Assembly (NCBI GenBank): GCA_002373715.1
Contig: DFLI01000051.1
Location: 35,797 to 99,796 of the forward strand
DNA from: Bacteroidales bacterium UBA3623
Lineage (GTDB): Bacteria > Bacteroidota > Bacteroidia > Bacteroidales > UBA932
Length of the DNA: 64,000 nucleotides
Reading direction: 5' to 3'
This document shows, in pieces, positions 19,334 to 54,364 of the stretch (position 1 is its first letter; every line of letters begins with the position of its first letter). The notes under the pieces were generated by a model that was not told the DNA's origin, ran no database searches, and worked only from the letters and a program-made list of their open reading frames with translations. The position numbers and the translations under genes were made by a program.

Positions 19334-19345
19334 AACGAAAGCAAT

Positions 19346-20791
19346 ATGAAAAGGAAACTGATCACCGCGCTGGCGCTCATCCTGGCAGTAGCCTGTGGAA
19401 AGACTCCTGACCCCGATCCCATTCCCGACAACAAGGACGACGGATTGTATGACCTTTCGCAAGTGACTGTCATGGACTCCGGCACCATCTCTCTTGAGCA
19501 GTTCTATCAGGGACTGCTGCAAGAGTCTTCATCCTCCAACGATGATTACGACCCCGCCCTGTACGACTATTATTCCAGCCTGCTGAAACAAGCGCAAGGC
19601 ACCCAGACCAAGGCAGAGAGCGGCAGCATGAGCTATGCCTGGACCATTCTCCGTTACACTACAAAGGATGTTTCCGGCAAAAACATAGAGTGCTCCGAAG
19701 CGCTGGTGTGGCCTATCAGCTCGAACGGTTCACAGCAAGCAAGAAACGTACTGATTGGCTGTCATGTCACCATCACCGGAGACGAGCAGCGCCCCAGCAA
19801 TTTTACCAACGGGGGCGTTTCCAATGACGTAAATTTGCTGGCCACCTTTGCCAGCCCGCTCTCCCAGAGCGCGTTGGTGATCCTGCCCGACTACGAAGGG
19901 TACGGTGCCACCCGCAACCACCATCATCCCTATTGCAACCGCGAAGTAACATCCCTACAGGTAGTGGATGGTGCCAAGGCGGGCATTGCCTGGTATGAGA
20001 AAGAAAAGAATAAACTGGCCGATGGCTGGAAGTCGGTGGCTGTTGGCTATTCTCAGGGTGGCGCAGCAGCGGCCGGAGTGTATCGCTATTGCCGCGAACA
20101 TAGCGAGAGCGGCCTTCGCCTGGCCGGTGCCATCTGCGCAGACGGGCCGTACGACCTTATGGCAACGCTGACTGAATACGCCCATAGCGGACAGTTGTAT
20201 ATGCCCATTGCCGCTGCCCTTATCCTGAAGGGTGCAATAGATACCAACCCCCGCCTCAAGGAGTTGGGCTGCACTTATGCAGACTTCTGCTCACCGGAGT
20301 TCATAAGAACGGGAATCTTCGACTGGCTTAAGGACAAGGAGGTAGCCGGGAACAAAATGAACAAACAACTGCTCAGCGCCCTTGGCTTGGATCCGCAGGG
20401 ATACGCTCCCATTGAGATGTGCTTCAAGCCTTCCCTGCTGGCCTATTTCAAGGACGGCAGCGTGGACGGAGATATATCGGCCGATAAACTCCAGGCCCTC
20501 CGGCAGTGCCTGGAGGAGAATTCCCTCTCCTACGGCGGATGGATGCCCCCGCAGGCCTCCGGCCTCACCTTCTTCCATTCAACCACAGACGATGTGGTGC
20601 CCCCGATTAACCTCTACACCATGGATGACCAGTGGGCCAGCCAGAGCGACCATTATAGCACCTACCTTTACACCTCCTCCGCCCTGGGCTCCCATACCAC
20701 TACCGGCAACATGTTCTTTATCCAGTTCTGTTCCGGTTACATTGACGACATCCTGAACGGCAAATGGTCTTCCCAGCATAAGAAATTATAA
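19346..20791 (+). CDS. Secretory lipase-like alpha/beta hydrolase lipoprotein
   Basis: AVAC lipobox; PDYEGYG, HPY, GYSQGG, GPYD, HSTTDDVVP. Confidence 0.82.
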   Translation: MKRKLITALALILAVACGKTPDPDPIPDNKDDGLYDLSQVTVMDSGTISLEQFYQGLLQESSSSNDDYDPALYDYYSSLLKQAQGTQTKAESGSMSYAWTILRYTTKDVSGKNIECSEALVWPISSNGSQQARNVLIGCHVTITGDEQRPSNFTNGGVSNDVNLLATFASPLSQSALVILPDYEGYGATRNHHHPYCNREVTSLQVVDGAKAGIAWYEKEKNKLADGWKSVAVGYSQGGAAAAGVYRYCREHSESGLRLAGAICADGPYDLMATLTEYAHSGQLYMPIAAALILKGAIDTNPRLKELGCTYADFCSPEFIRTGIFDWLKDKEVAGNKMNKQLLSALGLDPQGYAPIEMCFKPSLLAYFKDGSVDGDISADKLQALRQCLEENSLSYGGWMPPQASGLTFFHSTTDDVVPPINLYTMDDQWASQSDHYSTYLYTSSALGSHTTTGNMFFIQFCSGYIDDILNGKWSSQHKKL

Positions 20792-41195: not shown

Positions 41196-42617
41196 CTAGA
41201 GCATTTTTTCGATGTTGAGTTCCCGGTGGGTAACCGTGACCTTGACGTCAAACTTGTCCATAAGGTGACGGGCCAGGTGCTCGGCGCTGTAAACGGAGCG
41301 GTGCTGGCCGCCGGTGCAGCCGAAGCACACCTGCAGGTTGGTGAACTTGCGCTCGATAAAGCGCTTGACGTGAGCGTCCACCAGGTTGTACACGCTGTCC
41401 AGGAATACCTTGATTTCCCCGTCGTCTTCCAGGAACTTGATCACTTCCGGATCCATTCCGTTGAACTGGCGGTAGTACTCGTACTTGCCGGGATTGTTGA
41501 CGCTGCGGCAGTCAAAGACGTAGCCGCCGCCGTTGCCGGTGGTATCGGCCGGAACACCTTTCTTATAGGCAAAACTGTAGATGTGCACGGACAGACGGTG
41601 GTCCTGGGCAATTTCGTTGAGCTCCGGCAGGGAGGCCATCTTGCTCAGGAGGTCGTTCATGTACGGATAGGCCGAGAAGGGCGTCTGCAGCAGTTTGCGA
41701 AGATTGCTGAGGGCGTAAGGAACGCTGGCCAGGAAGTGGGGTTTCTTTTCGAAGTAGCCGCGGAAACCGTAGGCTCCCAGCACCTGCATGGTGCGGAACA
41801 GCACAAACAGGCGCAGACGGCTGCGGAAGTGGGCCTCGTCCACTTTCTTGTACTGCTGAAGGGCTTCCAGATAAGTGCCGATAAGCTCCTGCTTCATATC
41901 TTCCGGGAAACGGGAGCGGGCCTGCCAGATGAAGGAGGCCACGTCGTAGTAGATGGGACCGCGGCGGCCGCCCTGGAAATCGATGAACCACGGGGCGCCG
42001 TCCTTCACCATCACATTGCGGGCCTGGAAGTCCCTGTACATGAAAGTGTTGTCTTCTTCCTGAAGCAAGTCGGCCTTGAACTTCTCGAAATCGTCCTGCA
42101 GCAGGACTTCGTTGAATTCCAGACCGGTGGCCTTGAGGAAGCAGTATTTGAAGTAGTTAAGGTCGAAGTCCACCATGCGGGCGTCGAACGCCTCCTGGGG
42201 GTAGCAGTTCTTCCATTCCAGGCCTTCGGCCCCCACAAACTGGATTTTGGGAAGTTCGGCGATGGCGCTCTTCAGAAGGGCGGTTTCTTCGGGGCTGTAA
42301 AAGCCACTCTCACGGCCCTGGGCTACCATCCCGAAGAGAACCTGGTCTCCCAGGTCTTCCTGGATGTAGGCGCTGCCGTCTTCGCTTACGGCTAGCACCG
42401 TAGGAACCCGCAGGCCCTTCTCCTTGAAGTGCTTGGCCAGATAGATGAAACTGTGGTTCTCCTGCAGATTGGTGCCCACGGCGCCAATGAGCGAGAGTCC
42501 GTCACTCTTTAAGCGAAAGTACCGACGGTTGCTGCCCGAAGCGGGAAGCTCCAGGATTTCCGTCAGTTTCTGTCCGGTATAGGATTCAAATAAGGGTCTG
42601 AGTATCTGTTCCGACAT
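41196..42617 (-). CDS. AmgK-like anomeric sugar kinase (APH fold) fused to RapZ C-terminal domain
   Basis: SGSNRRYFR, EDLGD, YRDFQARN, IDFQG..GP..YDVAS; C-terminal SFAYKKG, FDCR...NPG, GCTGGQHRSVY. Confidence 0.88.
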   Translation of the reverse strand: MSEQILRPLFESYTGQKLTEILELPASGSNRRYFRLKSDGLSLIGAVGTNLQENHSFIYLAKHFKEKGLRVPTVLAVSEDGSAYIQEDLGDQVLFGMVAQGRESGFYSPEETALLKSAIAELPKIQFVGAEGLEWKNCYPQEAFDARMVDFDLNYFKYCFLKATGLEFNEVLLQDDFEKFKADLLQEEDNTFMYRDFQARNVMVKDGAPWFIDFQGGRRGPIYYDVASFIWQARSRFPEDMKQELIGTYLEALQQYKKVDEAHFRSRLRLFVLFRTMQVLGAYGFRGYFEKKPHFLASVPYALSNLRKLLQTPFSAYPYMNDLLSKMASLPELNEIAQDHRLSVHIYSFAYKKGVPADTTGNGGGYVFDCRSVNNPGKYEYYRQFNGMDPEVIKFLEDDGEIKVFLDSVYNLVDAHVKRFIERKFTNLQVCFGCTGGQHRSVYSAEHLARHLMDKFDVKVTVTHRELNIEKML

Positions 42618-42627
42618 AGTGGAAAGT

Positions 42628-45069
42628 TTATACGTTATTCAAGAAGTAGTTCACAATGGTATCCTTACTCTCTTGGGTAATGAGGAACTGGTTGTGGTTG
42701 GTAGGATGATGGATAATCTCACAGTCGGGATAACGGTTCTTCCAACGTTGCTCGTTGGTGGCAAACTCCGCTTTCTCCCGCGCCTTCACATCGGCCGGTT
42801 TCACATAGCCGGCACTAACGGCGCTTTCCTCTGCGTAGTGGGTGGAAACGATGGATGTGACCGGTCCATTGTAGGTTTCCTCGGGCATGGTGGCCATCAA
42901 CTTGATGTCCAGGTCCGCCCTTCGGTTGTTTCTCTCATCATTCAGGTGGGGGAAGAAGTAGGCAGGACGGAGGAGTTCCTGGAGGGCGATGTCGCGGTCC
43001 AGTTCTCCATCCAGGACCACCACGTGGGGCTTTTCGGCCTTGTCATTATAAAGACGTGCGGCCAGGGCCAGAGCCTGCTCACCTCCGGCGCAGAAACCGG
43101 TGATGCACACAACGTGGCGCTTTTTGACAATGTCCTGTACATACTGTTCATAAACATCTACCAGGCCCTTGACATCTGTCAGTTGGTCCTGCATGACGGT
43201 ATGATAGGATTCAATGGCGAAGATGGCGAACTTATGGCAAATCTCCTGGGCCCATTCGCCAAAGAGAAAATCAAAGCTTGTATATCCGCTGATAACGATG
43301 ATGACCGGTTTTTCCGTTTCCACCTCTCCTTTTCCATACCAGAATGCATTCGGGTGCTTCTCGGCCGACATGATTCCCCGAATGGTCCTCCGCGTATAGA
43401 AATCGTTGGCGGTCAGATGAAAGCCGGATATTCCCATCAGGACGATGAGTTGCATGATATGGAGAGACGTGATGCCTACATCGTTCATGAGATCCGCATT
43501 GACATTGATGCCGGGCAGGCCGATAAGCCCGGCGGCAGCCTGAATGAGCAGTTCCTCAGAGGGCGTTACGGGCGTATCATTGGTAATGACCGGATCCAGG
43601 GCTTCGTTCACCAGGGTAGACTTGTCAATCTTTCCGTTCATGGTGAGCTTGAACTCCTTGACGCGGTTCCAGAACGTAGGAACCATGTAGGCAGGGAGCA
43701 GCCTGGCCACGGCTTCCTTGACAGGGGCAAGATCCTCAAATCCCTCCTCCGTCATCACATAAGCTACGATATATTTCTCAGTACCAACTTGTTCTAGGTG
43801 CACGAACGCACGCACCACCCCTTCCTGCCTTTCGATGCAGGCGCAGATCTCGCCCAATTCAATGCGGAAGCTGCGCAACTTGATCTGGGAATCTTTCCGG
43901 CCGATATAATTGAAACTGCCGTCCTCGTTCAGGACAACCAGGTCTCCGCTTCGATAAAGCCTTGACACATCTATTCCGTCATGTTCTTTCTCGTACGGAT
44001 TGTCTATAAACACTTCAGCATTCAAGTCCGGACGGTTCCAGTAACCGTTGGTGACCTGGTTTCCGCCAATGAGCAGCTCTCCCTGCTCCCCGGGGGCAAC
44101 CAGCTTTCCTTCCTCATCGGCCACATAGCACACCACACCGGGGGAAGGCGCGCCGATATTCTGCCAGTCGTCCACTCCCTGGATTTCATGGGTAGTGACC
44201 ACCACGCAGGTTTCGGTGGGGCCGTATCCGTTCACAAAACGGTAAGGTCGCTTTCCGGCTATCTTTCGGGTGAGGCTATGCGGAATGGCCTCGCCACCGG
44301 CAGACAGGGTATCCATGGCCGGGAAATCGTAATCCGGGAAGATGGCCAGAAGAGACGGGGGCATGAAGGTAAAAGTAATGCCCTTGTCTTTCAGAAGCTT
44401 ATGAAGAAGCCATGCATTGTGTCGCTCTTCGTTTTGGGCGATGACCAGGGTGCCGCCATAGCAAAGCGAGGAATAAATCTCTAGGACGGAAGCGTCAAAG
44501 CTGATGCTGGCAAACTGGAGAATGACAGAGTTTTCGCTGATATTGAAATTGTGCGGCAGGCAAACTGTCTGCGAATAACTGTAAAGCGCCTTGTAGGGAA
44601 CCGACACTCCCTTGGGCTCTCCTGTAGTGCCGGACGTATAAATCATATAGACCTCCGAGAACCCTCGCTTCAGAAGCGGCAGCGGGTCCATGATGGGGCT
44701 GGAGAGCAACTCCCGGATATTGTCGGCAGTAATGAGGAAGCTCACTCCGGCATCCCGGCAGATATAATCCCTGCGGTCAACGGGCGTTTCCGCGTCAATG
44801 GGGATATATGAACAACCCAGTTTGATGGACGCCAACATGCAAGGCAGATAATGCTGGTCCCGGCCAAGGTATATGCCGATCCGTACCGGAACATCGCCGG
44901 CGGCAGGAGTCCCTATCTTCCCGACCAGGCCCGACGCTATATGGCAAGCCATTTCATCCATCCGGGCATAGGTAACCTTCTCATCGCCCAGGATGTATGC
45001 CACCTTGTCCTTATGAGCGGCAACAACCGATTGTAGCCTTTCCGAGAGCTTTTCGAAATAAACGTCCAT
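42628..45069 (-). CDS. Stand-alone NRPS-like enzyme: adenylation - carrier (T) - thioesterase
   Basis: YTSGTTGEPKG, FDASV, NGYGPTE, GELLIGG, YRSGD, RIELGEI, LPAYMVP, NGKID; T motif GITSL; TE motif GFCAGG. Confidence 0.9.
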   Translation of the reverse strand: MDVYFEKLSERLQSVVAAHKDKVAYILGDEKVTYARMDEMACHIASGLVGKIGTPAAGDVPVRIGIYLGRDQHYLPCMLASIKLGCSYIPIDAETPVDRRDYICRDAGVSFLITADNIRELLSSPIMDPLPLLKRGFSEVYMIYTSGTTGEPKGVSVPYKALYSYSQTVCLPHNFNISENSVILQFASISFDASVLEIYSSLCYGGTLVIAQNEERHNAWLLHKLLKDKGITFTFMPPSLLAIFPDYDFPAMDTLSAGGEAIPHSLTRKIAGKRPYRFVNGYGPTETCVVVTTHEIQGVDDWQNIGAPSPGVVCYVADEEGKLVAPGEQGELLIGGNQVTNGYWNRPDLNAEVFIDNPYEKEHDGIDVSRLYRSGDLVVLNEDGSFNYIGRKDSQIKLRSFRIELGEICACIERQEGVVRAFVHLEQVGTEKYIVAYVMTEEGFEDLAPVKEAVARLLPAYMVPTFWNRVKEFKLTMNGKIDKSTLVNEALDPVITNDTPVTPSEELLIQAAAGLIGLPGINVNADLMNDVGITSLHIMQLIVLMGISGFHLTANDFYTRRTIRGIMSAEKHPNAFWYGKGEVETEKPVIIVISGYTSFDFLFGEWAQEICHKFAIFAIESYHTVMQDQLTDVKGLVDVYEQYVQDIVKKRHVVCITGFCAGGEQALALAARLYNDKAEKPHVVVLDGELDRDIALQELLRPAYFFPHLNDERNNRRADLDIKLMATMPEETYNGPVTSIVSTHYAEESAVSAGYVKPADVKAREKAEFATNEQRWKNRYPDCEIIHHPTNHNQFLITQESKDTIVNYFLNNV

Positions 45070-45087
45070 ATACTACTACTGACTAAT

Positions 45088-47442
45088 CTAGAACTTGACG
45101 GCCACATGACCCAGCAGCCAAAGGCCTGCCTGACGCAAGGGGGCTACACTGGAACCGCCCTGCATGTAGGCCGTATTGGCTACGTTATATACATTGATGC
45201 CCAGTTCCACCATCTTAATCCGATAACTGGCGCCCAAATCCACCAGAGCCCGGGCGGGAATGTCAATCTCCATCTCCGGTGCGCCCGGCAGGGTGTACAG
45301 CGATTTCTGTTTGGATACAAAAATGGTATGGGCGCTCACCTTGAGGCCGGAAATGATTTCATAGGAAGCCGCCAGGTTGGCCTGGAAATCCGGAATATTG
45401 TAAAGCCCATGGCCGATGGTGAGGTAGTTCTGGGAAGAAAGCACTCTCTGCCAGGTAATGTTCGCGTCTACCGTGAAGCGGGAGATGGTATAGCTGGCCG
45501 CCGTCTCCACGCCGGCGTTGGTAAGCTGACCGGCATTGACGTTACCCGTTTCGCTCTGGATGATGAAATTATCGGCCTTGTTCACAAAACCGCTCAGCTC
45601 CATCTTCAGGCCGGGCACCAGTTTGCCGTCACTGTAGAAGGACAGCTGCCAGGAATTCAGGTACTCGGGCGCCAGGTCTGCGTCTCCGGAGTTGATGTCA
45701 AAGGTGTTGTTGCGGTAGAAATAAGGCGAATCAACGAAAGCTTTGGAATAGCTGAGCTTAGCACTCCACTTGGGCCGGGAATAGATGAGGGCGATACGGG
45801 GCGAGAGCACGTGCATCTTCTTGAGGTTGGACCTCATCTTGAAGTCGTAGCGCAGGCCGGCGTTCAGCACAAGCCCTATGTTCCAGGTATGCTTGAGCTG
45901 GAAATAAGCATCGGCACTGGTTTCCTTGCCCGTATACAGTACCTTTTCGTCGTTGAACGCCTTCAGGATTACCTTGTAATCCCTGCCTTCCAGATAGTTG
46001 GCGTCGGTGAGCTGGAAACGGTTGGCGTGACCGCCTATCATCATAACGCCGGAATGATTGTCCCCAATGGTATAATTGTAGATGCCCTGAGCCGATACGC
46101 CGTAGGTATACTCTTTCCAATTGGCGCTCTGGAACACGCCGTTATAGAGTTTGAGGATAATATCTTCCGCTCCGTTGGGATGTACGTCATTGGCTCCCAC
46201 TTCCGGAATTTCATCGCCTCCCACCTGATAACGCTGCTGGTCCTGCGAGTCAAAAATGGCAATAACCTGCCAGGCAAAATGGCCCTTGCTGTCCGAATAG
46301 CCCAGTTCTGCATGCTGGGAAGTGATGGCATAGCCCGGGGCATTACCATTATACAGGCGATACTGCGAGTAACTGTAGGGTGTAAAGAAGTAGCTCAGAC
46401 TCATGGGTGCCACGGTCTTGGAGAAACGGCGGTTGTACAGAAGATGCATCTTTTCCCACTTCAGCGACATTCCCAGGTCGTAGGACGGGGCCTTGTTGTA
46501 GCCCCCTATGATCATGTCTCCTTCTATGGGCATAACGGCATAGGGCTGTGCCTCCGGGGTGGCATCATAATGAACCTTCTGGCCGGTGGCATTATAGATG
46601 CTGGCCCAGGCCAGGATATCCAGCGAAAGATAGCGTTTGCCAAAAAGGAGGTCTCCTCTCACCTGGCCATAGTTGCCTGCGCCCGCCTTCAGCTTGAAGC
46701 CGTCCACGTCTGAGCCTTCTTTGGTAATGATATTCACCACGCCCGTAAGAGCCACGCCGCCATACAGGGACGAAGCCGGGCCTCGCAGCACCTCTATCTG
46801 CTTCACTTTCTCCAGACTGATGGAATAGTCCGGGCTGGCCGTATTGGTGGAATAACTGTTTAGGCGATGGCCGTCCAGCATGATGAGAATCTTCTCCTGT
46901 CCCGAGGAATAAATGCCTCGCATAGCCACGTTCATCTCCTCGTTGCAGGCAATGTCCGTCATACCGGGAACGTAGGCTATGAGGGCGTCCTTGAGGGTAC
47001 GGGCACCTACGCGTTCTATCATCTCTTCCGTAATAAGGGAGACCGGCACGGGAGCCTCTTCGATGGATTCCGCCTGCTGGGAAGCTGTGGTAATGGTAGC
47101 CGATTTGCCGGCCTTGATTCTGTTCACCATTTCGGTGAAACGCGGGGAGTCATTATAGGCCCTGTAATAAGGATCAACGGCCAACAGCCGGGTCACCCAC
47201 GCCTCCGCCACTTCGGGCTTGTCCATATTCAGGTTGCTCAGGGCCAGAAGCCTGAACATGTTAATCTGAGTTTCTCCCTTGAAATTGTTGACAGAGTTGC
47301 TCAGCAGGGAGTCTGCCTGCTGGAACAAGCCGTACTCGTATGCCTCCTGGGCCAGCTCGTACAGATGGATATCTTCCTGTGCCCTGGCTGTGTATGAGAA
47401 GCAAAGGACGATGAGGGCGAATATGTATCTTTTGATTCTCAT
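45088..47442 (-). CDS. TonB-dependent receptor with N-terminal TPR-like domain
   Basis: Signal peptide; helical N-domain; plug (ITTAS..E...APVPV, IEVLRGPASSLYG, GVVNIITK); beta-barrel ending in F. Confidence 0.9.
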   Translation of the reverse strand: MRIKRYIFALIVLCFSYTARAQEDIHLYELAQEAYEYGLFQQADSLLSNSVNNFKGETQINMFRLLALSNLNMDKPEVAEAWVTRLLAVDPYYRAYNDSPRFTEMVNRIKAGKSATITTASQQAESIEEAPVPVSLITEEMIERVGARTLKDALIAYVPGMTDIACNEEMNVAMRGIYSSGQEKILIMLDGHRLNSYSTNTASPDYSISLEKVKQIEVLRGPASSLYGGVALTGVVNIITKEGSDVDGFKLKAGAGNYGQVRGDLLFGKRYLSLDILAWASIYNATGQKVHYDATPEAQPYAVMPIEGDMIIGGYNKAPSYDLGMSLKWEKMHLLYNRRFSKTVAPMSLSYFFTPYSYSQYRLYNGNAPGYAITSQHAELGYSDSKGHFAWQVIAIFDSQDQQRYQVGGDEIPEVGANDVHPNGAEDIILKLYNGVFQSANWKEYTYGVSAQGIYNYTIGDNHSGVMMIGGHANRFQLTDANYLEGRDYKVILKAFNDEKVLYTGKETSADAYFQLKHTWNIGLVLNAGLRYDFKMRSNLKKMHVLSPRIALIYSRPKWSAKLSYSKAFVDSPYFYRNNTFDINSGDADLAPEYLNSWQLSFYSDGKLVPGLKMELSGFVNKADNFIIQSETGNVNAGQLTNAGVETAASYTISRFTVDANITWQRVLSSQNYLTIGHGLYNIPDFQANLAASYEIISGLKVSAHTIFVSKQKSLYTLPGAPEMEIDIPARALVDLGASYRIKMVELGINVYNVANTAYMQGGSSVAPLRQAGLWLLGHVAVKF

Positions 47443-48302
47443 TTTACAATTGTGACAGGGATGAGGAAGGTAAAGGTAGTGCCCACCATGGGCTCGGATT
47501 CCAAAAGCAGCTTGCCGCTATGGTTCTTGGTAATGATATCGTGGGTGATGCTCAGTCCCAGGCCCGTACCCTGTCCGGCCGGTTTGGTGGTAAAGAAAAC
47601 TTCAAAGATCTTTTCCCTGATCTCCGGAGTCATTCCCATACCGTTGTCCGTAATGCTCACCTGCAGCTCACCTGCCTTGCCATCCTTGGAGTCCAGGGAC
47701 ACCTTCACGTCAATAGTGGGCTGGTAGTCCGGTCCTTCCTGGGCTGCCCTCTCCTTCACGGTGTAGCAGGCATTGTTCATCACATTGAGCACAGCCCGGC
47801 TAAGATCCTGCGGAATAACCATGACCTTGGGCATATTCTCCTGTATGTCTTCCTTGATGGTCAGGTTGAAGCTCTTGTCGTTGGCGCGCATGGCATGGTA
47901 GCTGAGCCACACGTATTCGTGTACCAGCTGTCCCACATCGGTGGGAAGCATCTCCCCCGCCTTGCCGCGGCTGAACAGCAGGATGCCCCGGATAATGCTG
48001 ATGGCACGTTCTCCGTGCTCCTGAATCTTGGCAAGGTTTTCCTTGAGGTCGGCCGATATGTCCTCCAGATCGGCAGCGTCGTCTTCTCCCAGTTTGTCGG
48101 CGCAGTCGTCCAGTACATCCTTCAAATCATCCAGCAATTTGACCGACATCTTGCTGAAATTAATGACAAAATTCAGAGGATTCTGTATTTCATGGGCGAT
48201 GCCGGCGCTCAGAAGCCCCAGGGAGGCCATCTTTTCCTGCTTGTGCAGCTGCTCCTGCAACTCTTCTACCTGTTTTTTCAGGTTTTCAGTTTCTTCTACC
48301 AT
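47439..48302 (-). CDS. Cytoplasmic histidine kinase (HisKA + HATPase only, no sensor)
   Basis: EKMASLG...GIAHEIQNPLNF H-box, N, DNGMGM, FFTTKP.GQGTGLGL. Confidence 0.92.
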   Translation of the reverse strand: MVEETENLKKQVEELQEQLHKQEKMASLGLLSAGIAHEIQNPLNFVINFSKMSVKLLDDLKDVLDDCADKLGEDDAADLEDISADLKENLAKIQEHGERAISIIRGILLFSRGKAGEMLPTDVGQLVHEYVWLSYHAMRANDKSFNLTIKEDIQENMPKVMVIPQDLSRAVLNVMNNACYTVKERAAQEGPDYQPTIDVKVSLDSKDGKAGELQVSITDNGMGMTPEIREKIFEVFFTTKPAGQGTGLGLSITHDIITKNHSGKLLLESEPMVGTTFTFLIPVTIVK

Positions 48303-48314
48303 AATTACAGTATC

Positions 48315-50888
48315 TTAAGCCAGTGACATTACAAATTCGGTATACTCATCCTTGACGGAGTCTACGGTGATATGGCCGCCGCAGTCGTGCAGGATCTGCT
48401 GACTGAGGTAAAGGCCCACGCCAGGTGCTTCGCCCGTGGGTTTGGTGGTAAAGAAGGGATCAAAGACCTTGTCCAGAATACTGCTCTCAATGCCTATACC
48501 ATTGTCGTAGATCTTGATCTGGACAGGACCGGCGGCCTCCTGCAAAACAGTGACGCGGAGGACGGGCTTGTATTCCACTCCCTTATCGGCCTTCTTCTTG
48601 ATGGCGTATATGCTGTTGCCCAGCATGGACATGACAGCCTTGCCCATCTGATCTGCCACCACGTTCCGCATGACGGGCTTGTCCGGTTTGATGAACTCAA
48701 CCTGGATTCCGAGGGCAGTGATGTCATCGGCATAATACGTCTTGAACTTATCTATGCACTGTTGGCACAAAAGGGTCAAATCCGTGGATTCGAACTTGGT
48801 GGAACGCTCCTTGAGCATCTCCTCCATGGCCTTCAGGGTACGCGTGGTGGAGATTCCGTGCTGCTCAATCTTCTCCAGATTGGTCTTCATCATATCCATC
48901 ACATCCATGGAATCCTCGAAGTTGTCCGGATCCATTGCATCTTTCTCATCCTCAACGTTCTGTCGCAATTCCCCGGACAGGCCCAAGGTAAGATGGGCAA
49001 AATTGTTGATGTAGTTCATGGGGTTCAGGATACGGTCTATGAGGCCCTTGGTAAGCTTACCGATAGCGGCCGCACGCTCCTGCCTGAGCAGTTTGTCCTG
49101 GGCCTTGCGCAGCTCCTTGGTACGCTCGTCCACAATGGCCTCCAGGCGTTGCTGTTCCTCTGCCATGCGACGCATGCGGTACCGGAAAAGCAAATAAACA
49201 AGGAAGACGATGATAATCAGGTACAACAGGAGGGAATACCAGCGTACGAACACAGGATAGGGCTTCTTGAAATCTAAGGGGCCGATTTCGCTCAACTGCC
49301 CGAAGGCATCCTTCGATCGCACAGACACCTGGTAAGAACCATAACCGAGGTTGGCAAACAGGTACTCCTGCTCGTCGTCCCATTTGGACCAGGCGTTGTC
49401 TGCATGCATGCGGTAACTGTAAAGCGTCTGGCCGATAGGGTCCGTCTTGTCGTTGGAGAAGCTGAGGGTAAGGTCTCCGTTCTCCATGCTGAAATGGCGT
49501 ACGTACAGCTGAGGCAGGTCCCGCTGGGTGGCAAGGCTTTGCTCCATATTGAACCGGACCAACTGCACATTGTCTCCAATCCATACCAGGCCATCCTCTA
49601 CCAGCATGGCCTGGACATTGAAGTCAGAGAAGGGCTCAAACCACGCTTTCAGCTTTTCCGGCATGTTCTCATAATAAATGCCCAAGCCGTTGTCGTAGCT
49701 GCGCCAGATGTTGCAGGCCTTGTCTTCGTATTCAAAGAGTCGGGACAAAGGGCTTTCCTCCTTCTTCTCAAATGTATTCTCACCAGGATCCATATAGAAG
49801 GCATCGCCCGAAAGCGTCATGGCCCACACTCCGCCCGCGCGGTCTTTCTTGAAACGGGTGATGTTGGGAATTTGGCCTATCGGCCTTATTCCTTCACCGG
49901 GCCGGAAGCGGCATACGCGCTCCAGTTCCCCTACCAGATAGGAGCCATCGTCCATGGCCAGTATGGAAAGGGCAAACTGGTTGGTCTGCTGCCGTGCCGT
50001 GCCGTTGCTATATTGATACACACCGTCCGATGTGGCCACGTAAAGAGTTCCGCCGGAGCCCTGGGCCATCTGCCAGCAGGGGTGGGTCACATTGCTCACC
50101 TGGGTGAAGCGCTGTCCTTCCTGACGATACAGGCCCTGGAAGGTTCCCACCATGATGGTGGATCCTAGCTGGGTTATGCAGGAGATCTGGCCTCGGAGGC
50201 CTTCCTTCTCTGTAAAGTGCGTGTAAATCTCCGAGACCGAGATGCTGAAAACGCCATTGTCCGTGGCTCCCCAGACCGTGCCTTTGCCGTCGTAAGCGAG
50301 TTTGGTAATGCTGTTGGAGCACAGTCCGTTGTCCACATTGATGCGCCAGATTTCCCGGCCCTCGCGGTCCACCGCAACGACGCCTTCCGTAGCCGTAGCC
50401 AGGAGGGTGCGGTTGTCTTCCAGCTTCAGGCGCTGATAGACCTCAATGTCATTCCAGCGGTCCACTGCGGTTTCGCTGATGCGCTCGCCGCCAGCCAGTG
50501 CGCTGGCATTCTCCCCCGCGCGCCGGACATATGCCACCTGGATAGAATCCCCGTCAACGGACAGAACCTGCCCAGTCATAGTGATACCTTCGAAGACCAC
50601 ATTCCCGTCCTGATCCCGGCTCACGCTCACAACGCGGGAGATATCCGGCGTATGAACGATCCTCCACTCCACGTTGTCGTACACGAGAAGTCCTTCGAAA
50701 TTGGCAAAGAAGGTATGCCCCTCACCGTCACAGAGGACGTCAAAGTTACGGTTGTGGGCATTGTACTGGCTGGCCGAGTAGTTTCTGAAGAACGGAACGC
50801 CCATGTGGGCTCCGTCCTGAGCGGCAGCCTGCACCGTGCAAAACGCCACGGCGACTATCCAACTGATATGATACAGAAACTTTCTCAT
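48315..50888 (-). CDS. Beta-propeller/Y_Y_Y sensor histidine kinase-like protein lacking phospho-acceptor His
   Basis: Signal peptide, Reg_prop repeats, YSYR...NLGYGSY Y_Y_Y, TM, coiled coil, H-box reads GLIDRILNP, HATPase; start ATG 50888. Confidence 0.85.
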   Translation of the reverse strand: MRKFLYHISWIVAVAFCTVQAAAQDGAHMGVPFFRNYSASQYNAHNRNFDVLCDGEGHTFFANFEGLLVYDNVEWRIVHTPDISRVVSVSRDQDGNVVFEGITMTGQVLSVDGDSIQVAYVRRAGENASALAGGERISETAVDRWNDIEVYQRLKLEDNRTLLATATEGVVAVDREGREIWRINVDNGLCSNSITKLAYDGKGTVWGATDNGVFSISVSEIYTHFTEKEGLRGQISCITQLGSTIMVGTFQGLYRQEGQRFTQVSNVTHPCWQMAQGSGGTLYVATSDGVYQYSNGTARQQTNQFALSILAMDDGSYLVGELERVCRFRPGEGIRPIGQIPNITRFKKDRAGGVWAMTLSGDAFYMDPGENTFEKKEESPLSRLFEYEDKACNIWRSYDNGLGIYYENMPEKLKAWFEPFSDFNVQAMLVEDGLVWIGDNVQLVRFNMEQSLATQRDLPQLYVRHFSMENGDLTLSFSNDKTDPIGQTLYSYRMHADNAWSKWDDEQEYLFANLGYGSYQVSVRSKDAFGQLSEIGPLDFKKPYPVFVRWYSLLLYLIIIVFLVYLLFRYRMRRMAEEQQRLEAIVDERTKELRKAQDKLLRQERAAAIGKLTKGLIDRILNPMNYINNFAHLTLGLSGELRQNVEDEKDAMDPDNFEDSMDVMDMMKTNLEKIEQHGISTTRTLKAMEEMLKERSTKFESTDLTLLCQQCIDKFKTYYADDITALGIQVEFIKPDKPVMRNVVADQMGKAVMSMLGNSIYAIKKKADKGVEYKPVLRVTVLQEAAGPVQIKIYDNGIGIESSILDKVFDPFFTTKPTGEAPGVGLYLSQQILHDCGGHITVDSVKDEYTEFVMSLA

Positions 50889-52543
50889 TTGAACGTCATA
50901 TAGGGGATGGATACGCCCACATAGCGGGTCCATTCCTGTTGGGTGAGATTACGCTTAAGTTTATTGTGCAGCTGCTGAGCCATGTCATCGGCCGATGCAT
51001 TCAGCAGCATCACATTTCCGGAGGACGTGCCAATCCATACCGATTTTCCATCCTCGTCCCCGCACACGGCCAGCGTCCATCCGTCAAAGGTATAATCCAC
51101 GGGCACCAGCCACTCGGTAGGGACTTCCTGGCTGCCGGACACACGCTTTTCCACCTTTTCCTTCTGCAGCTCTTCGCGGAAGGACAAACCGCTCTCGAAC
51201 AGCAGATTATCCATGTTCCAGATATACGCTGTCTTGTCATAGCCACCCGTCACAACAACGGGGCCTAGCATGGTGATATCCATGCACTTGGCCTTATGGG
51301 CCGCCATGGTTTCCATCACGCGGTCGTATTGGTTTACGGGATATACCGTTCCGTCTTCCACGCCCAGCAGCAGGCACTTGCTGGCCTTGTCGTAGTAGGC
51401 GGCCGTAACCACGCCTTTGAGCAAAGGGGCCTTTTCCACGATCCTGCCCGCCACATCCATCTCGGCGTAACCTCCGTCCGTAAAGAAAAGACAGGTGACG
51501 CCTTCCCTCTCTACAATGGCCGACAGCGTCCCAGGCAGTTCCTCGCTGCCGGTTATCTTTCCGTCCGAATACCAGCTTAAACTCTTTCGCCCTGCTACTA
51601 GCAGGCCGTCTCCAATGGGGACCAGTTTGAAATAGTTGTCTTCCGGCAGCTGAACTTCTACATGGTTTCCTTCAAAATCCAGGACGCAAAGGGGGCCTTT
51701 GAGGGAAAGGGCATAGATACTGTTATCCTTGATAAGTACATCCCTGAAATCGAACAAGGAATTGAAAAGTAAGGCATTGGAAGAAATCCTCTTTCCTCCC
51801 TGGCTCGCGTTCACGGTGAGCCGTTCCACTTCTCCGAAATTGGAAACGGCCACACATTGTCCGGGGCGGCCGGGAACCTTGGCAAGGGCGTTCACGGCAC
51901 CGCCTTCCTTCATCTTGTAGCGAAGGATACCGTCGGTGGCCTGGGTCAACGACTTGAAAGTCTCGGAATAATACTGGTTACCCCGGTTGTTTTTCAGGAA
52001 ATACCAGCTGGCATATGCCAGAAGATCTGCCACCTCCGGTTCACCGGCTTCCCTTCTCACCTGGGAGCTCACGGCCAGGCTCCTGGCCTGGGTGCGGCGG
52101 TTCAGCGTATCGGCCACATTCTTGGCGTGGGTGGCTTCGTCCCTCTGTTCAACGGCAATTTCCTGCTGCCGTTCGGCATTGGCGCGCTCCCGCTCCGCCA
52201 CCTGGGCGGCCGATTGGGCCTTGAGCTCTGCCTCATGGGCGGCGCGGCTTTCCATCTCGGCCCTATAGGCATTCTGGGTGGCCAGGATGGACTGTTCCTC
52301 GGCCCTGTCCCGTTGCTGGTCTGAAATAGCTTTCTGCTGATAGGCGATATCCTCCATCTGCTGGCTCACCCGCTTCACAATGGCGGCATCCTTCTCGGCG
52401 GCCTCCATCTGCTCCATCTCCTCCTTCAGCGAGGCCAGTTCCGTCCTGGACCGGTTGTAACCCATACGATAAGCGAGCGCCGCCACACCGGCTACGACTG
52501 CCAGTGCTATCAGGCTCATCCATATGTATGTACGGTTTTTCAC
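50885..52543 (-). CDS. Membrane-anchored coiled-coil + WD40 beta-propeller protein
   Basis: N-terminal TM, long A/E/Q-rich coiled coil, ARSLA, WD-like repeats (AHKAK..TGGYDKTAYIWN), C-terminal RNLTQQEW.RY; GTG start. Confidence 0.75.
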   Translation of the reverse strand: MKNRTYIWMSLIALAVVAGVAALAYRMGYNRSRTELASLKEEMEQMEAAEKDAAIVKRVSQQMEDIAYQQKAISDQQRDRAEEQSILATQNAYRAEMESRAAHEAELKAQSAAQVAERERANAERQQEIAVEQRDEATHAKNVADTLNRRTQARSLAVSSQVRREAGEPEVADLLAYASWYFLKNNRGNQYYSETFKSLTQATDGILRYKMKEGGAVNALAKVPGRPGQCVAVSNFGEVERLTVNASQGGKRISSNALLFNSLFDFRDVLIKDNSIYALSLKGPLCVLDFEGNHVEVQLPEDNYFKLVPIGDGLLVAGRKSLSWYSDGKITGSEELPGTLSAIVEREGVTCLFFTDGGYAEMDVAGRIVEKAPLLKGVVTAAYYDKASKCLLLGVEDGTVYPVNQYDRVMETMAAHKAKCMDITMLGPVVVTGGYDKTAYIWNMDNLLFESGLSFREELQKEKVEKRVSGSQEVPTEWLVPVDYTFDGWTLAVCGDEDGKSVWIGTSSGNVMLLNASADDMAQQLHNKLKRNLTQQEWTRYVGVSIPYMTFK

Positions 52544-53703
52544 TTTCTGCGGATTACTAATTGGGTAATATCATCGCTCTGGGCAGCACCGGCTACGAAT
52601 TCCTTCACTTTGGCGTTGACCGTGTCCACTATCTGTTTGCTTTCGGCCCCCTTCAGTTCTGCCAGGGCAGCCTCCAGCCTTGCTTCTCCGAATTGTTCGT
52701 GATCTTTGTTCTCGGCCTCCGTAACGCCGTCCGTATACATGACAAGGGCGTCTCCGGGGTTCAGCCGAAGCGATTCATTCTTGAATGTCATGCCTTCTAT
52801 TGCACCCAGGACCAGGTTGCATTCGGATTTCAACATTTCCACCGTACCGTCAGCATGGAGAATGTAAGGCGGGTTGTGTCCGGCGTTTGTGAAATCAATC
52901 TCTCCGGTCTTCAGGTCATATATTCCGTAGAAAACGGTGACAAACATGGATTCCACGCTTTCTCCGCACAGCATGTCGTTCACCATCTGGATGCACACGT
53001 TGGATGCCACGTCACGCAGACCCGTGGCTTTAAGGAGCGTACGGCTCACCGCCATGAAGATGGCCGCCGGCACACCCTTGCCGCTGACATCCGCTATGGT
53101 AAAACCTATGCGGTGGTCGTCAATGGGGAAGAACTCATAGAAATCACCTCCCACATCCTTGGCCGCCACCATGCTGGCATAGATGTCCACCAAATCGGCG
53201 TCTTCCATCTTGAGCTTGAACGAGCGGGGCAGGATGGCGTGCTGGATTTCACGGGCCACGGAGAGGTCTCCCTGGATATCCACCAGCTGGGCATGTTCCT
53301 TCTGGGCGCTCTTGACATATTCAATCTGCTCCACCGCCTTGTCAATGGTTACCTGGAGGTCGTCCAGGTCTATCGGCTTGGTGGCAAAATCGAAAGCGCC
53401 GTTGTTCATGGCATGACGAATATTCTCCATGTCTCCGTAGGCGCTTACCATGATGCACTTGAGGGAGGGATTGCGCATCTCGTTCACCTTGGTCAGAAGC
53501 GTGAGACCGTCCATTTCGGGCATGTTGATGTCCGAAAGGATGATGGCGATGTCCGGATGCTTCAACAGGACCTTAAGGGCTTCCAGTCCGTTGTGGGCAA
53601 AGAAGAACTCGTACTCGCCCTTTCTTATCTTTCTGCGGAAAAATTGCGTCAACAACAATTCGAGATCGGTTTCGTCATCAACGCTGAGAATTTTTACTGC
53701 CAT
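52540..53703 (-). CDS. Response regulator receiver - SpoIIE/PP2C phosphatase (RsbU-like)
   Basis: VDDE, SDINMPEMDG, SAYGD, TKP; VGGDFY, ADVSGKG, NAGHNPP, YTDGVTEA, SDDIT. Confidence 0.93.
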   Translation of the reverse strand: MAVKILSVDDETDLELLLTQFFRRKIRKGEYEFFFAHNGLEALKVLLKHPDIAIILSDINMPEMDGLTLLTKVNEMRNPSLKCIMVSAYGDMENIRHAMNNGAFDFATKPIDLDDLQVTIDKAVEQIEYVKSAQKEHAQLVDIQGDLSVAREIQHAILPRSFKLKMEDADLVDIYASMVAAKDVGGDFYEFFPIDDHRIGFTIADVSGKGVPAAIFMAVSRTLLKATGLRDVASNVCIQMVNDMLCGESVESMFVTVFYGIYDLKTGEIDFTNAGHNPPYILHADGTVEMLKSECNLVLGAIEGMTFKNESLRLNPGDALVMYTDGVTEAENKDHEQFGEARLEAALAELKGAESKQIVDTVNAKVKEFVAGAAQSDDITQLVIRRK

Positions 53704-53764: not shown

Positions 53765-54364
53765 TTATTCCTTTGCAAAAAACTTCCAGTGGAAGAGAAT
53801 GAGATAGATAGCGCCGCAAGTGACGCAACTGTCGGCAAAATTGAATACCGGTTCAAAGAAAATGTGACCGCCCAGGCCCGGCACCCAGTCTGGCCAGGTC
53901 CAGAGGGGGAAGTAGAACATATCTACCACCTTTCCCTGCATGAACGGCGCATAGGAGCCTAGCGTTGCCACTGTGTCGTAAGTGGATTCGCTGAAGATGA
54001 GGCCGTAGAAGAGGCAGTCTATAATGTTTCCGAAAGCGCCGGCCGTAATGAGAGTAAGGCCTACCAGTACCCCGGTGGGAATGCTTTCCTTCTTAATGAG
54101 GGTGGCAATCCACCAGCAGAGGGCGCCAAAGAGGATGAGGCGGAAGACCGTGAGGATATACTTGCCCACAACCCCGCCGAAGGCCATACCAAAGGCCATA
54201 CCCTTGTTCTCTACGAACAGGATCTGGAACCAGTTTCCTATGACGAAAATATGCTCTCCCAAGGTCATGTTGGTTTTGACCAGGACCTTGATGACCTGAT
54301 CAATCACAACCAGCAGGATACCAAGGAGCAGCAGCCAGGAGCCTTTGGAAAGACGCCTCGCCAT
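53765..54364 (-). CDS. lspA: Lipoprotein signal peptidase II
   Basis: DQVIK, NKGMAFG, AGAFGNIID, GKVVDM, FNFADS. Confidence 0.95.
   Translation of the reverse strand: MARRLSKGSWLLLLGILLVVIDQVIKVLVKTNMTLGEHIFVIGNWFQILFVENKGMAFGMAFGGVVGKYILTVFRLILFGALCWWIATLIKKESIPTGVLVGLTLITAGAFGNIIDCLFYGLIFSESTYDTVATLGSYAPFMQGKVVDMFYFPLWTWPDWVPGLGGHIFFEPVFNFADSCVTCGAIYLILFHWKFFAKE

Follow-up and report, generated by a model that had tools for sequence, protein, structure and literature searches.

When the genes for a TonB-dependent receptor, a two-component kinase, a phosphatase and a small nonribosomal peptide synthetase (NRPS) are found packed into one block, an obvious question arises: does the cell make the very molecule that its receptor detects? 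This question is posed by a six-gene block, referred to here as g1 to g6, on the minus strand of a 64,000-nucleotide stretch (hereafter, the window) of contig DFLI01000051.1 from Bacteroidales bacterium UBA3623. The source is a 2.07-Mb metagenome-assembled genome (MAG) that is 84% complete; related MAGs, including one named Candidatus Cryptobacteroides, come from the rumen, and all loci compared below are metagenome assemblies as well. As argued here, the six genes may represent a self-contained "make and sense" envelope circuit, with a self-made ligand, a route from the receptor to a partner switch, and a polymorphism resembling that of quorum-sensing pherotypes, a reading to which we assign a probability of about 0.55. 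The genes, with the receptor gene g5 given both as a whole and in its two parts, are as follows (positions are those of the window):

52540..53703, minus strand: g1, receiver fused to a SpoIIE/PP2C phosphatase, 387 aa
50885..52543, minus strand: g2, membrane anchor, helical stalk and 7-bladed WD40 propeller, 552 aa, predicted to be periplasmic
48315..50888, minus strand: g3, Reg_prop/Y_Y_Y sensor, membrane helix, Asp-bearing DHp-like helix and HATPase_c, 857 aa
47439..48302, minus strand: g4, soluble sensor-less histidine kinase, 287 aa
45088..47442, minus strand: g5 (whole), TonB-dependent receptor with an N-terminal extension of about 110 residues; Plug 127-235, barrel 340-754
46633..47442, minus strand: g5, conserved part, residues 1 to about 270, comprising the signal peptide, TPR-like domain (22-112), linker and plug
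45088..46632, minus strand: g5, variable part, residues about 271-784, comprising the 22-strand barrel, first half of an apparently exchangeable cassette
42628..45069, minus strand: g6, one-module NRPS-like A-T-thioesterase-like enzyme, 813 aa, second half of the same cassette

An earlier interpretation, made from the letters and open reading frames (ORFs) alone and called here the sequence-only reading, had described six co-oriented, tightly packed genes, and this description holds: the ORF listing gives 4-bp overlaps at the g1/g2, g2/g3 and g4/g5 junctions and gaps of 12 bp between g3 and g4 and of 18 bp between g5 and g6, the start of g3 being taken as Met16 of the longest frame, which extends to 50933. 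The domain make-up assigned to the six genes at that stage agrees with the Pfam and NCBIfam scans. A terminator scan yielded nothing convincing on the minus strand within the block; a scan for sigma-70 promoters is uninformative for Bacteroidota. Orthologous loci repeat identical starts, overlaps and gene order, and the recurrence of these features far exceeds chance expectation.

Is the synthetase, indeed, a part of the system, or does it just happen to be encoded next to it? In three scans, performed at one genome per species with the loci mapped by tblastn, the same six-gene order was recovered in about 30 further species-level Bacteroidales genomes from rumen and gut. All six genes are visible in at least 22 of these genomes, and the order is g1-g2-g3-g4-g5-g6 wherever the contig reaches. 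This order is also unchanged in MAGs labeled as Prevotella or Prevotellaceae (loci L131, L133, L134, L136 and L140), where g2 and g3 are, respectively, 27-31% and 33-36% identical to their counterparts in the window. The block is found in at least eight unrelated flanking contexts; when two of the loci, L028 and L039, are aligned, they are collinear at 78% identity across exactly the operon and nowhere else. The genus to which the source organism belongs is very large, and 6 of the 400 species drawn from it have a close g2 ortholog, with none among the first 24. Given the conserved order, the varied flanks and the rarity in the genus, the block is a discrete accessory unit that includes the synthetase. 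The sequence-only reading had named separation of the NRPS gene from the five signaling genes as the finding that would refute it; the synthetase proved to be linked to them in all loci where the contig reaches, and the unit travels among differing genomic contexts. The synteny and the diversity of flanks together rule out that the six genes are associated by chance or by position alone. One local rearrangement around the block was noticed, in which a gene at 18289-19527 of locus L027, downstream of the operon, has its counterpart at 5820-7044 of L028, upstream of it, at 74% identity. An apparent locus in Deltaproteobacteria (L141) was discarded as spurious, the match covering only 40 residues.

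If g6 makes the ligand of g5, the two should bear traces of a common history. In identity matrices, g1-g4 are 61-99% identical among the Cryptobacteroides-type loci, and g5 and g6 split into discrete types:

Type A: most loci; reference for the type identities
Type B: loci L026, L028, L037 and L039; g5 50-61% and g6 36-42% identical to type A
Type C: loci L040 and L130; g5 63-65% and g6 about 46% identical to type A
Two-module form: locus L041; g5 41% and g6 29% identical to type A

The members of type B are 79-86% identical to one another. In L041, the place of g6 is taken by a 1786-aa A-T-C-A-T enzyme with a Ser-type thioesterase motif. The boundaries of the exchanged segment can be seen in pairwise alignments. 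Specifically, L028 (type B) and L029 (type A) are 83-86% identical at the DNA level from the upstream flank through g1-g4 to residue ~270 of g5, show no detectable homology from there until ~20 nt from the g6 stop, and are again 83% identical over the 5-kb flank beyond g6; in the comparison of L026 with L036, the breakpoint falls at g5 residue ~325. The exchanged segment begins within g5 instead of at a gene boundary and ends at the g6 stop. Across the cassette types, the N-terminal domain and plug of g5 are 65-90% identical, as compared to 15-45% for the barrel.

The phylogeny of the signaling core points in the same direction. When g1-g4 are concatenated for tree building, each of the three type-B carriers that have a complete core falls into a separate, well-supported clade, and monophyly of type B was rejected by the approximately unbiased (AU) test with a log-likelihood difference of 987 (p 2e-71), a very large margin, although the type-B group was defined after the matrices had been seen. 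Over 17 loci, the pairwise identities of the barrel and of g6 correlate with r of 0.97, as compared to 0.39-0.40 for either of them against the core; a partial Mantel test of barrel and g6 given the core yielded an r of 0.97, a value reached in none of 5000 permutations. When the comparison is confined to type A, the partial r for barrel versus g6 is 0.76. Thus judged from alignments and trees, the receptor barrel and the whole synthetase gene appear to constitute one exchangeable cassette, and their co-variation would be the pattern expected of a ligand and its receptor. The co-polymorphism and joint exchange by which the signal synthase and the receptor specificity region of quorum-sensing pherotype systems are recognized are both found here for g6 and the barrel.

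The core itself also seems to have moved. When the window is compared with the corresponding locus of RGIG1112 (L024), the ileS-dksA-lspA region is 80-92% identical, the segment from the g1 start through the N-terminal part of g5 is 98-100% identical, and the barrel and g6 are 64-81% identical. This pattern suggests that the signaling core (53703-47300) was recently transferred between species by homologous recombination, or possibly reflects an effect of metagenome assembly.

How could the occupancy of an outer-membrane receptor be reported to the cell interior? The first candidate for a relay is g2. The Pfam scan of this protein gave only weak WD40 matches, along with an N-terminal membrane helix and a coiled coil. 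The AlphaFold2 model (mean predicted local distance difference test score, pLDDT, 87.6) comprises helices at residues 3-58, where the membrane helix continues up to residue 58, and 74-165, the latter 92 residues long, followed by a propeller at 206-515, for which Foldseek retrieved 7-bladed WD40 structures. With about 120 helical residues outside the membrane, the modeled stalk would, by simple arithmetic, span roughly 18 nm. At residues 81-137 of g2, alanine is invariant or nearly so at every 7th residue (nine heptads), as in an alanine zipper, in a family with only ~25-60% identity. This family comprises 122 clusters at 50% identity below an E-value of 1e-30. Matches were found in 96 other genomes among the 400 drawn from the order, mostly in the C-terminal half of proteins of ~1040 aa. 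One such homolog (P0271) consists of an nSTAND1 NTPase domain (2e-95), a single hydrophobic helix at ~505-528, a coiled coil, WD40 repeats and the same C-terminal RNLxxEEW motif as g2. By homology, g2 corresponds to the C-terminal half of these widespread nSTAND1 NTPases, that is, to their membrane helix, stalk and propeller. Since the ATPase of P0271 has to face the cytoplasm and the chain crosses the membrane only once, the coiled coil and WD40 part of that protein should be periplasmic, and, by virtue of homology, so should be the coiled coil and propeller of g2. The nSTAND1 domain itself (PF20703) was detected neither in g2 nor, above the cut-off, anywhere in the source genome.

The second candidate is the N-terminal part of g5. 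This protein is an outer-membrane receptor, as had been proposed, with Pfam matches to Plug (1.3e-18) and to TonB_dep_Rec_b-barrel (3.5e-30); the model of its plug matches Cir, FoxA, BtuB and FhuA, and its best NCBIfam matches are with heme and siderophore receptor subfamilies, all below the cut-off. The AlphaFold2 model of the N-terminal domain shows five helices at residues 23-112 (pLDDT 78-95) and a disordered linker at 113-131, which holds a TonB-box-like ATITTAS sequence and leads to the plug. In VIA-align comparisons, the domain matched TPR structures with Z of 10-11 and, against a consensus TPR, a root-mean-square deviation of 1.6-1.7 A over ~70 residues. At an E-value of 0.01, Pfam gave neither an STN (PF07660) nor a TPR match in this region. 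There is, therefore, moderate evidence, coming from structural modeling, that the N-terminal domain is a TPR-like helical repeat. The TPR-like receptor domain of the sequence-only reading is supported by this model and alignment, and its envelope beta-propeller by the 7-bladed model of g2.

A hidden Markov model of the g5 N-terminal domain showed that this domain is encoded beside a g2-like gene in 18 of 20 loci across the order, being fused to a TonB-dependent receptor in 12 of these and carried by an adjacent protein of ~345-370 aa in the other 6. Because of this adjacency, the stalked propeller and the TPR-like domain of an outer-membrane barrel can be regarded as conserved partners. The six loci in which the domain resides on a small protein, not on a TonB receptor, are L088, L089, L095, L096, L098 and L100; of the three small proteins scanned, those of L088 and L100 have an OMP_b-brl_2 barrel, and that of L096 had no Pfam match. 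A change of the barrel type leaves the TPR-like domain of g5 and the periplasmic part of g3 unaltered, so that specificity would reside in the barrel, and it is the state of the receptor, not the ligand, that would be passed inward. The Pfam scan of the block found no inner-membrane importer, periplasmic binding protein, permease or reductase.

The full-length relatives of g2 deserve a separate comment. A gene for a ~1040-aa protein with the nSTAND1-transmembrane helix (TM)-coiled coil-WD40 architecture is followed by a gene for a TPR-bearing outer-membrane protein (OMP) in loci L053/L086, L087, L090-L094 and L097, and this pair occurs in roughly a quarter of the 400 sampled genomes of the order. 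Frequent companions of the pair are a formyltransferase-like gene, a ~970-aa HEAT/MFS-like protein, a Reg_prop sensor kinase, a small kinase, a receiver-PP2C protein, a STAS-containing protein of 403 aa and a permease/ABC_sub_bind fusion. This looks like an uncharacterized trans-envelope STAND system.

At the inner membrane, the signal would meet an unusual pair of kinases. The product of g3 shows weak Reg_prop/Y_Y_Y matches and a HATPase_c domain, but the H-box (GKLTxGLIDRILNP(M/L)NYI) has an Asp at the position of the phospho-acceptor His. This Asp is invariant in every ortholog checked, including copies that are 33-42% identical overall and those of two synthetase-less loci (L081 and L042); the N, G1, F and G2 boxes are intact. 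Conversely, g4 has HisKA (1.2e-9) and HATPase_c (8e-22) matches and a canonical H-box (AHEIQNPLN), without a sensor domain; the motif AGIAHE(I/V)QNPLNF is present in all orthologs, and g4 always follows g3 directly. A sensor that binds ATP but lacks the acceptor is thus followed, 12 bp on, by a kinase that bears the acceptor but lacks a sensor, for which reason g3 and g4 are best read as a putative heteromeric kinase; the split kinase of the sequence-only reading is supported. In the nSTAND1-type loci, the corresponding long sensors retain the His, so that one derived branch is marked by a sensor devoid of the His, a small kinase encoded separately and a g2 without the NTPase. Direct sensing of the ligand by the periplasmic domain of g3 was considered and is disfavored, this domain being constant across the changes of the barrel and synthetase types.

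What would the kinase pair control? In g1, Pfam identifies Response_reg at residues 5-120 (3.6e-21) and SpoIIE at 195-387 (3.6e-52), and both the receiver Asp (DINMPEMDG) and the metal-binding motifs of PP2C are present; the identity of the orthologs to g1 is 80-88% in Cryptobacteroides-type and 52-54% in Prevotella-type loci. In other Bacteroidales, parts of a partner switch are encoded near related receiver-PP2C genes. In L091, genes for an RsbW-like kinase and a STAS protein come directly after the receiver-PP2C gene; in L087 and L090, the 403-aa STAS-containing protein follows it; in L082 and L092, RsbW-like and STAS genes adjoin the g2-like gene; and the order in L081 is STAS, a 135-aa RsbW-like protein, a DJ-1 protein and g1. 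Together with the domains of g1, these neighborhoods support the earlier proposal that a receiver-controlled PP2C phosphatase is the output of the system and feeds a partner switch. In the source genome, a single small STAS protein of 100 aa is encoded on another contig, C140, beside a dCache-SpoIIE-HATPase_c_2 protein, and orthologs of this pair (2e-233 and 4e-37) are found in L039 immediately upstream of g1. The C140 STAS is, for that reason, the most likely substrate of g1, which would act on it. The C140 pair (L050, 4426-6954), with dCache, SpoIIE and RsbW-like parts in one 739-aa protein followed by STAS, has the appearance of a one-protein partner-switch controller.

There remains the enzyme that would produce the ligand. 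For g6, a one-module NRPS-like enzyme had been proposed, and an A domain, a carrier and a thioesterase-like C-terminal domain were all found. The A domain scores 318.2 with TIGR01733 (cut-off 317.4), contains AMP-binding, and has gramicidin and tyrocidine synthetases as its best PDB relatives; the equivalents of Asp235, which binds the alpha-amino group, and of Lys517 (A10) are present in the FDAS and GKIDK motifs, respectively. By these features, it is a regular amino-acid-activating NRPS domain. The PP-binding match at residues 507-566 (E 0.0026, 18.4 bits) is under the cut-off of 20.8, and the carrier motif G(I/L)(T/S)S is kept in all cassette types. The ten specificity positions were located by motif anchoring on GrsA and serve only to compare the types with one another, with no call of a substrate: the window and two relatives have DALFSGGVVK, most type A loci DVLFSGGIVK, type B DVLFCGGPIK and L040 DVMYAGGFYK. 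The 75 family members examined show 32 such strings, of which a few stem from an alignment gap; all have a hydrophobic character.

The C-terminal domain of g6, ~240 aa in length, has an invariant GxCxGG motif, Asp (LDGE) and His, i.e. a Cys-Asp-His triad. Pfam gave no match to Thioesterase (PF00975) in this domain, but its neighbors in the ESM Atlas are all Thioesterase clusters (0.95), and a profile search of solved structures gave weak matches, around the nucleophile and the Asp, to a polyketide synthase thioesterase (7r0x, 0.005) and to the Cys-type Dieckmann cyclase NcmC (0.014). The domain is probably a thioesterase-like alpha/beta hydrolase with a Cys nucleophile. A search with it of 5.8 billion proteins returned 77 clusters of roughly 480-840 aa, nearly all of about 810-840 aa, none of them with another annotated set of domains; those members whose surroundings are visible are all within this operon, and the profile of the domain had no matches in 400 other genomes of the order. 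The source genome has one phosphopantetheinyl transferase gene of Sfp size. Another NRPS of this genome, multi-modular and unrelated to the operon, is encoded on contig C50 (3826-8496) in an open frame of 1993 aa.

With these parts at hand, the following scenario can be envisaged. An alpha-amino acid would be activated by g6 and loaded on its carrier, and the Cys-type thioesterase would free a small amino-acid-derived product; since a sister locus has a two-module dipeptide synthetase in the same place, the simplest guess at this product would be a homodimer or diketopiperazine, or an aminoacyl conjugate. The barrel of g5 would recognize the product, as their co-inheritance suggests, and occupancy of the receptor would be communicated through the plug to the TPR-like domain and, by contact, to the propeller of g2, a step for which conservation and gene neighborhood speak. 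The latter protein may then act on the membrane sensor g3, which, having lost the His but kept the ATP-binding domain, would work as a heteromeric kinase with the soluble, His-bearing g4. By the logic of the domains, g4 would phosphorylate the receiver of g1 and so control its PP2C phosphatase, which would act on the phospho-STAS of a partner switch, the candidate here being, as the neighborhoods in relatives indicate, the 100-aa STAS of C140. Because barrel and synthetase are swapped together as types, the system would have "dialects" akin to quorum-sensing pherotypes or to the pyoverdine/FpvA types. The central claim of the sequence-only reading, that the NRPS product is a signal detected via the TonB receptor and relayed to the phosphatase, gains from the linkage of the synthetase and from its co-variation with the barrel; that the product and the ligand are the same molecule is the part that we infer.

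Several observations weigh against this scenario and have to be set beside it. No exporter is encoded in the block. The chemistry of a thioesterase acting on a single aminoacyl thioester yields no obvious product and is a matter of guesswork. Barrel and synthetase are adjacent, so that part of their co-variation is shared recombination history, and the 99-100% mosaic with RGIG1112 could reflect assembly or binning, though each junction lies within a contig. Among the close relatives, STAS genes adjoin the block in L039 only. Finally, two distant versions of the block come without a synthetase: in L042 (genome G333), g2-g5 are present at 33-63% identity and a rhamnosidase gene comes next; in L081 (genome G658, from another family), the gene after g1-g5 is that of a nitroreductase. 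Thus, the signaling core can exist alone, the receptor can serve another ligand, and the synthetase is an add-on gained within one branch of the family. These two loci, along with the nSTAND1-type relatives that have a receptor without any NRPS, favor the possibility that g5 senses an exogenous compound and that the synthetase is the effector, its product being an antagonistic molecule or an aminoacyl modification of the envelope; the co-variation would then stem from the neighborhood of barrel and synthetase in a recombination hot spot, driven, for instance, by phage or bacteriocin pressure on the barrel. Receptor barrels are, indeed, common targets of diversifying selection, and Cys-type alpha/beta-hydrolase domains can be aminoacyl transferases, as in SyrC and CmaE. 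Yet every independent type change seen replaces the barrel and the synthetase together, the exchange running from within g5 to the g6 stop; the correlation persists within type A (partial r of 0.76); the division of g5 into a conserved and a variable part matches one between signaling and ligand parts; and in the samples searched the Cys-thioesterase enzymes were never seen apart from this receptor. We therefore consider it unlikely that the synthetase is the output of the circuit.

The cassette pattern would fit equally well with scavenging of a nutrient by means of a metallophore-like compound, in which case g6 would provide a secreted chelator or carrier, g5 would take it up, and the signaling genes would serve ligand-dependent auto-regulation, as in the case of pyoverdine with FpvA, FpvR and PvdS. 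Co-diversification of synthetase and receptor is typical of siderophore loci (PMC11366639; Gu et al., PMC11734721, cited in PMC11444679), and the closest NCBIfam subfamilies of g5, albeit below the cut-off, are those of heme and siderophore receptors. It is difficult, however, to reconcile with this role a single A-T-TE module devoid of tailoring enzymes, whose specificity positions are hydrophobic and show no chelating-residue logic; a block without a periplasmic binding protein, inner-membrane permease, reductase or exporter; and an output that is a phosphatase and not a transcription factor for uptake genes, all of which makes scavenging improbable. Quite a different role is brought to mind by the STAND ancestry of g2, namely that of a conflict or immune sensor, with the receptor being watched as a gate for phages or bacteriocins, a stress or abortive response ensuing, and the synthetase making a decoy or blocker. 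The descent of g2 from nSTAND1-WD40 proteins and the strong polymorphism and horizontal exchange of the locus would suit such a function, and the nSTAND1 family has come up in the literature in connection with conflict systems (PMC8195603). But the nSTAND1 NTPase domain is precisely what is missing, from g2 and from the whole genome, no effector or toxin domain is found within or beside the block, and the output is an ordinary regulatory partner switch, so that we regard a role in conflict as very improbable. The reading on which the rest of this discussion is based remains that of a circuit making and sensing its own ligand.

With which known systems can such a circuit be compared? As in FecA-FecR-FecI and FpvA-FpvR-PvdS/FpvI, a TonB-dependent receptor with an additional periplasmic domain, N-terminal to the TonB box, would report its occupancy inward, and, as in the pyoverdine system, where the ligand comes from the cell's own NRPS, the receptor and synthetase types co-vary. 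The differences, however, are considerable: the additional domain is all-helical and TPR-like, not STN; neither a FecR-type anti-sigma factor nor an extracytoplasmic function (ECF) sigma factor is found among the six genes or their immediate neighbors; the relay would run from a stalked WD40 protein through a His-less sensor and its soluble kinase to a receiver-PP2C protein; and, in contrast to pyoverdine/FpvA, the synthetase has a single module and the block holds no uptake machinery past the outer membrane.

For the cytoplasmic half of the circuit, the closest analogy is offered by RsbK-RsbY-RsbV-RsbW of Bacillus cereus, a partner switch fed by a two-component system, in which a receiver-PP2C protein acts on phospho-STAS. 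Like RsbK and RsbY, the kinase described here would control a receiver-PP2C protein with a phospho-STAS protein of the anti-anti-sigma type as the expected substrate; unlike in that system, the kinase function is divided between a sensor without the His and a kinase without a sensor, the input would come from an outer-membrane receptor, and the STAS and RsbW-like genes are located elsewhere in the source genome (C140). We know of no sigma-B-type target in Bacteroidota. A kinase-like regulator without the His is exemplified by DivL of Caulobacter, which has Tyr at the His position and controls a partner kinase; g3 likewise has the acceptor His replaced and the ATP-binding domain retained and may likewise control a partner kinase, but the replacement is Asp, not Tyr, and a dedicated small partner kinase, g4, is encoded 12 bp downstream. 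The encoding of a TonB-dependent protein beside an inner-membrane Reg_prop/Y_Y_Y sensor is reminiscent of the polysaccharide utilization loci of Bacteroides, except that there is no SusD and there are no glycoside hydrolases, and, unlike the hybrid two-component systems (HTCS), g3 lacks the His, the receiver and the HTH/AraC output. With the nSTAND1-WD40 STAND NTPases (PF20703), g2 shares homology over its whole length (helix, coiled coil, WD40 and a C-terminal RNLTxxEW) as well as the neighbor, an outer-membrane protein with a TPR-like domain, but it lacks the NTPase domain, for which no other gene of the genome gives a match above the Pfam cut-off.

As to the polymorphism, the agr locus of staphylococci is a well-known pherotype quorum-sensing locus. 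Another is ComQXPA of Bacillus subtilis (PMC4008528). In these loci, as proposed for the present operon, the gene for signal synthesis varies and is inherited together with the portion of the receptor that binds the ligand, the signaling part and the downstream genes are conserved, and the types have spread across lineages by recombination; the operon differs in having an NRPS in place of a ribosomal peptide and an outer-membrane barrel in place of a membrane histidine kinase. Its polymorphism also resembles the co-evolution of siderophore synthetases and receptors (PMC11366639; PMC11734721, cited in PMC11444679).

The surroundings of the block in the window can be described briefly:

53765-54364: lspA, upstream neighbor of g1 (from the ORF listing)
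41196..42617, minus strand: "amgK-like" downstream neighbor, 473-aa APH-family kinase fused to a RapZ C-terminal domain (Pfam APH, PapZ_C)

The distance between the lspA end and g1 is 61 bp, and the amgK-like gene starts 10 bp past g6. Hence, the transcription unit of the source genome is possibly longer than six genes, with the amgK-like gene possibly co-transcribed, although it is outside the conserved block, adjoining it only in the window, L019, L020 (where it is inverted) and L117. Of the placement between lspA and amgK given in the sequence-only reading, the lspA side stands, but the amgK label does not hold well: the match of the protein to AmgK models is weak (58 bits, with a cut-off of 550). 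In the comparison of the window with RGIG1112, the amgK-like gene is 94-100% identical and the neighboring murU about 80%, which places the former inside a recent recombination tract.

What, then, is new in this locus and why does it matter? A literature search found no paper describing the arrangement, in agreement with the earlier statement that the combination is not recognized as characterized; what is new here is the exchange of the cassette and the pairing of the TPR-like domain with the stalked propeller. To our knowledge, no self-made signaling molecule with a dedicated receptor has been established for Bacteroidota. More tentatively, and with the odds somewhat against it, the locus might exemplify a new kind of cell-cell recognition or quorum sensing in this phylum, in which the product of a mini-NRPS, a TonB receptor, a STAND-derived WD40 relay, a heteromeric kinase and a partner switch are combined, with pherotype cassettes circulating among co-resident rumen species. 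Bacteroidota dominate gut and rumen communities, and the locus is a compact, directly testable candidate for a self-signaling system, with the natural allelic types of the cassette as built-in specificity controls. If the reading proposed here is true, it would reveal a route from a TonB-dependent receptor to a two-component system and a partner switch, instead of an anti-sigma/ECF pair, and would link this route to the larger, uncharacterized nSTAND1-TM-WD40/TPR-OMP family encountered in about one in four genomes sampled from the order.

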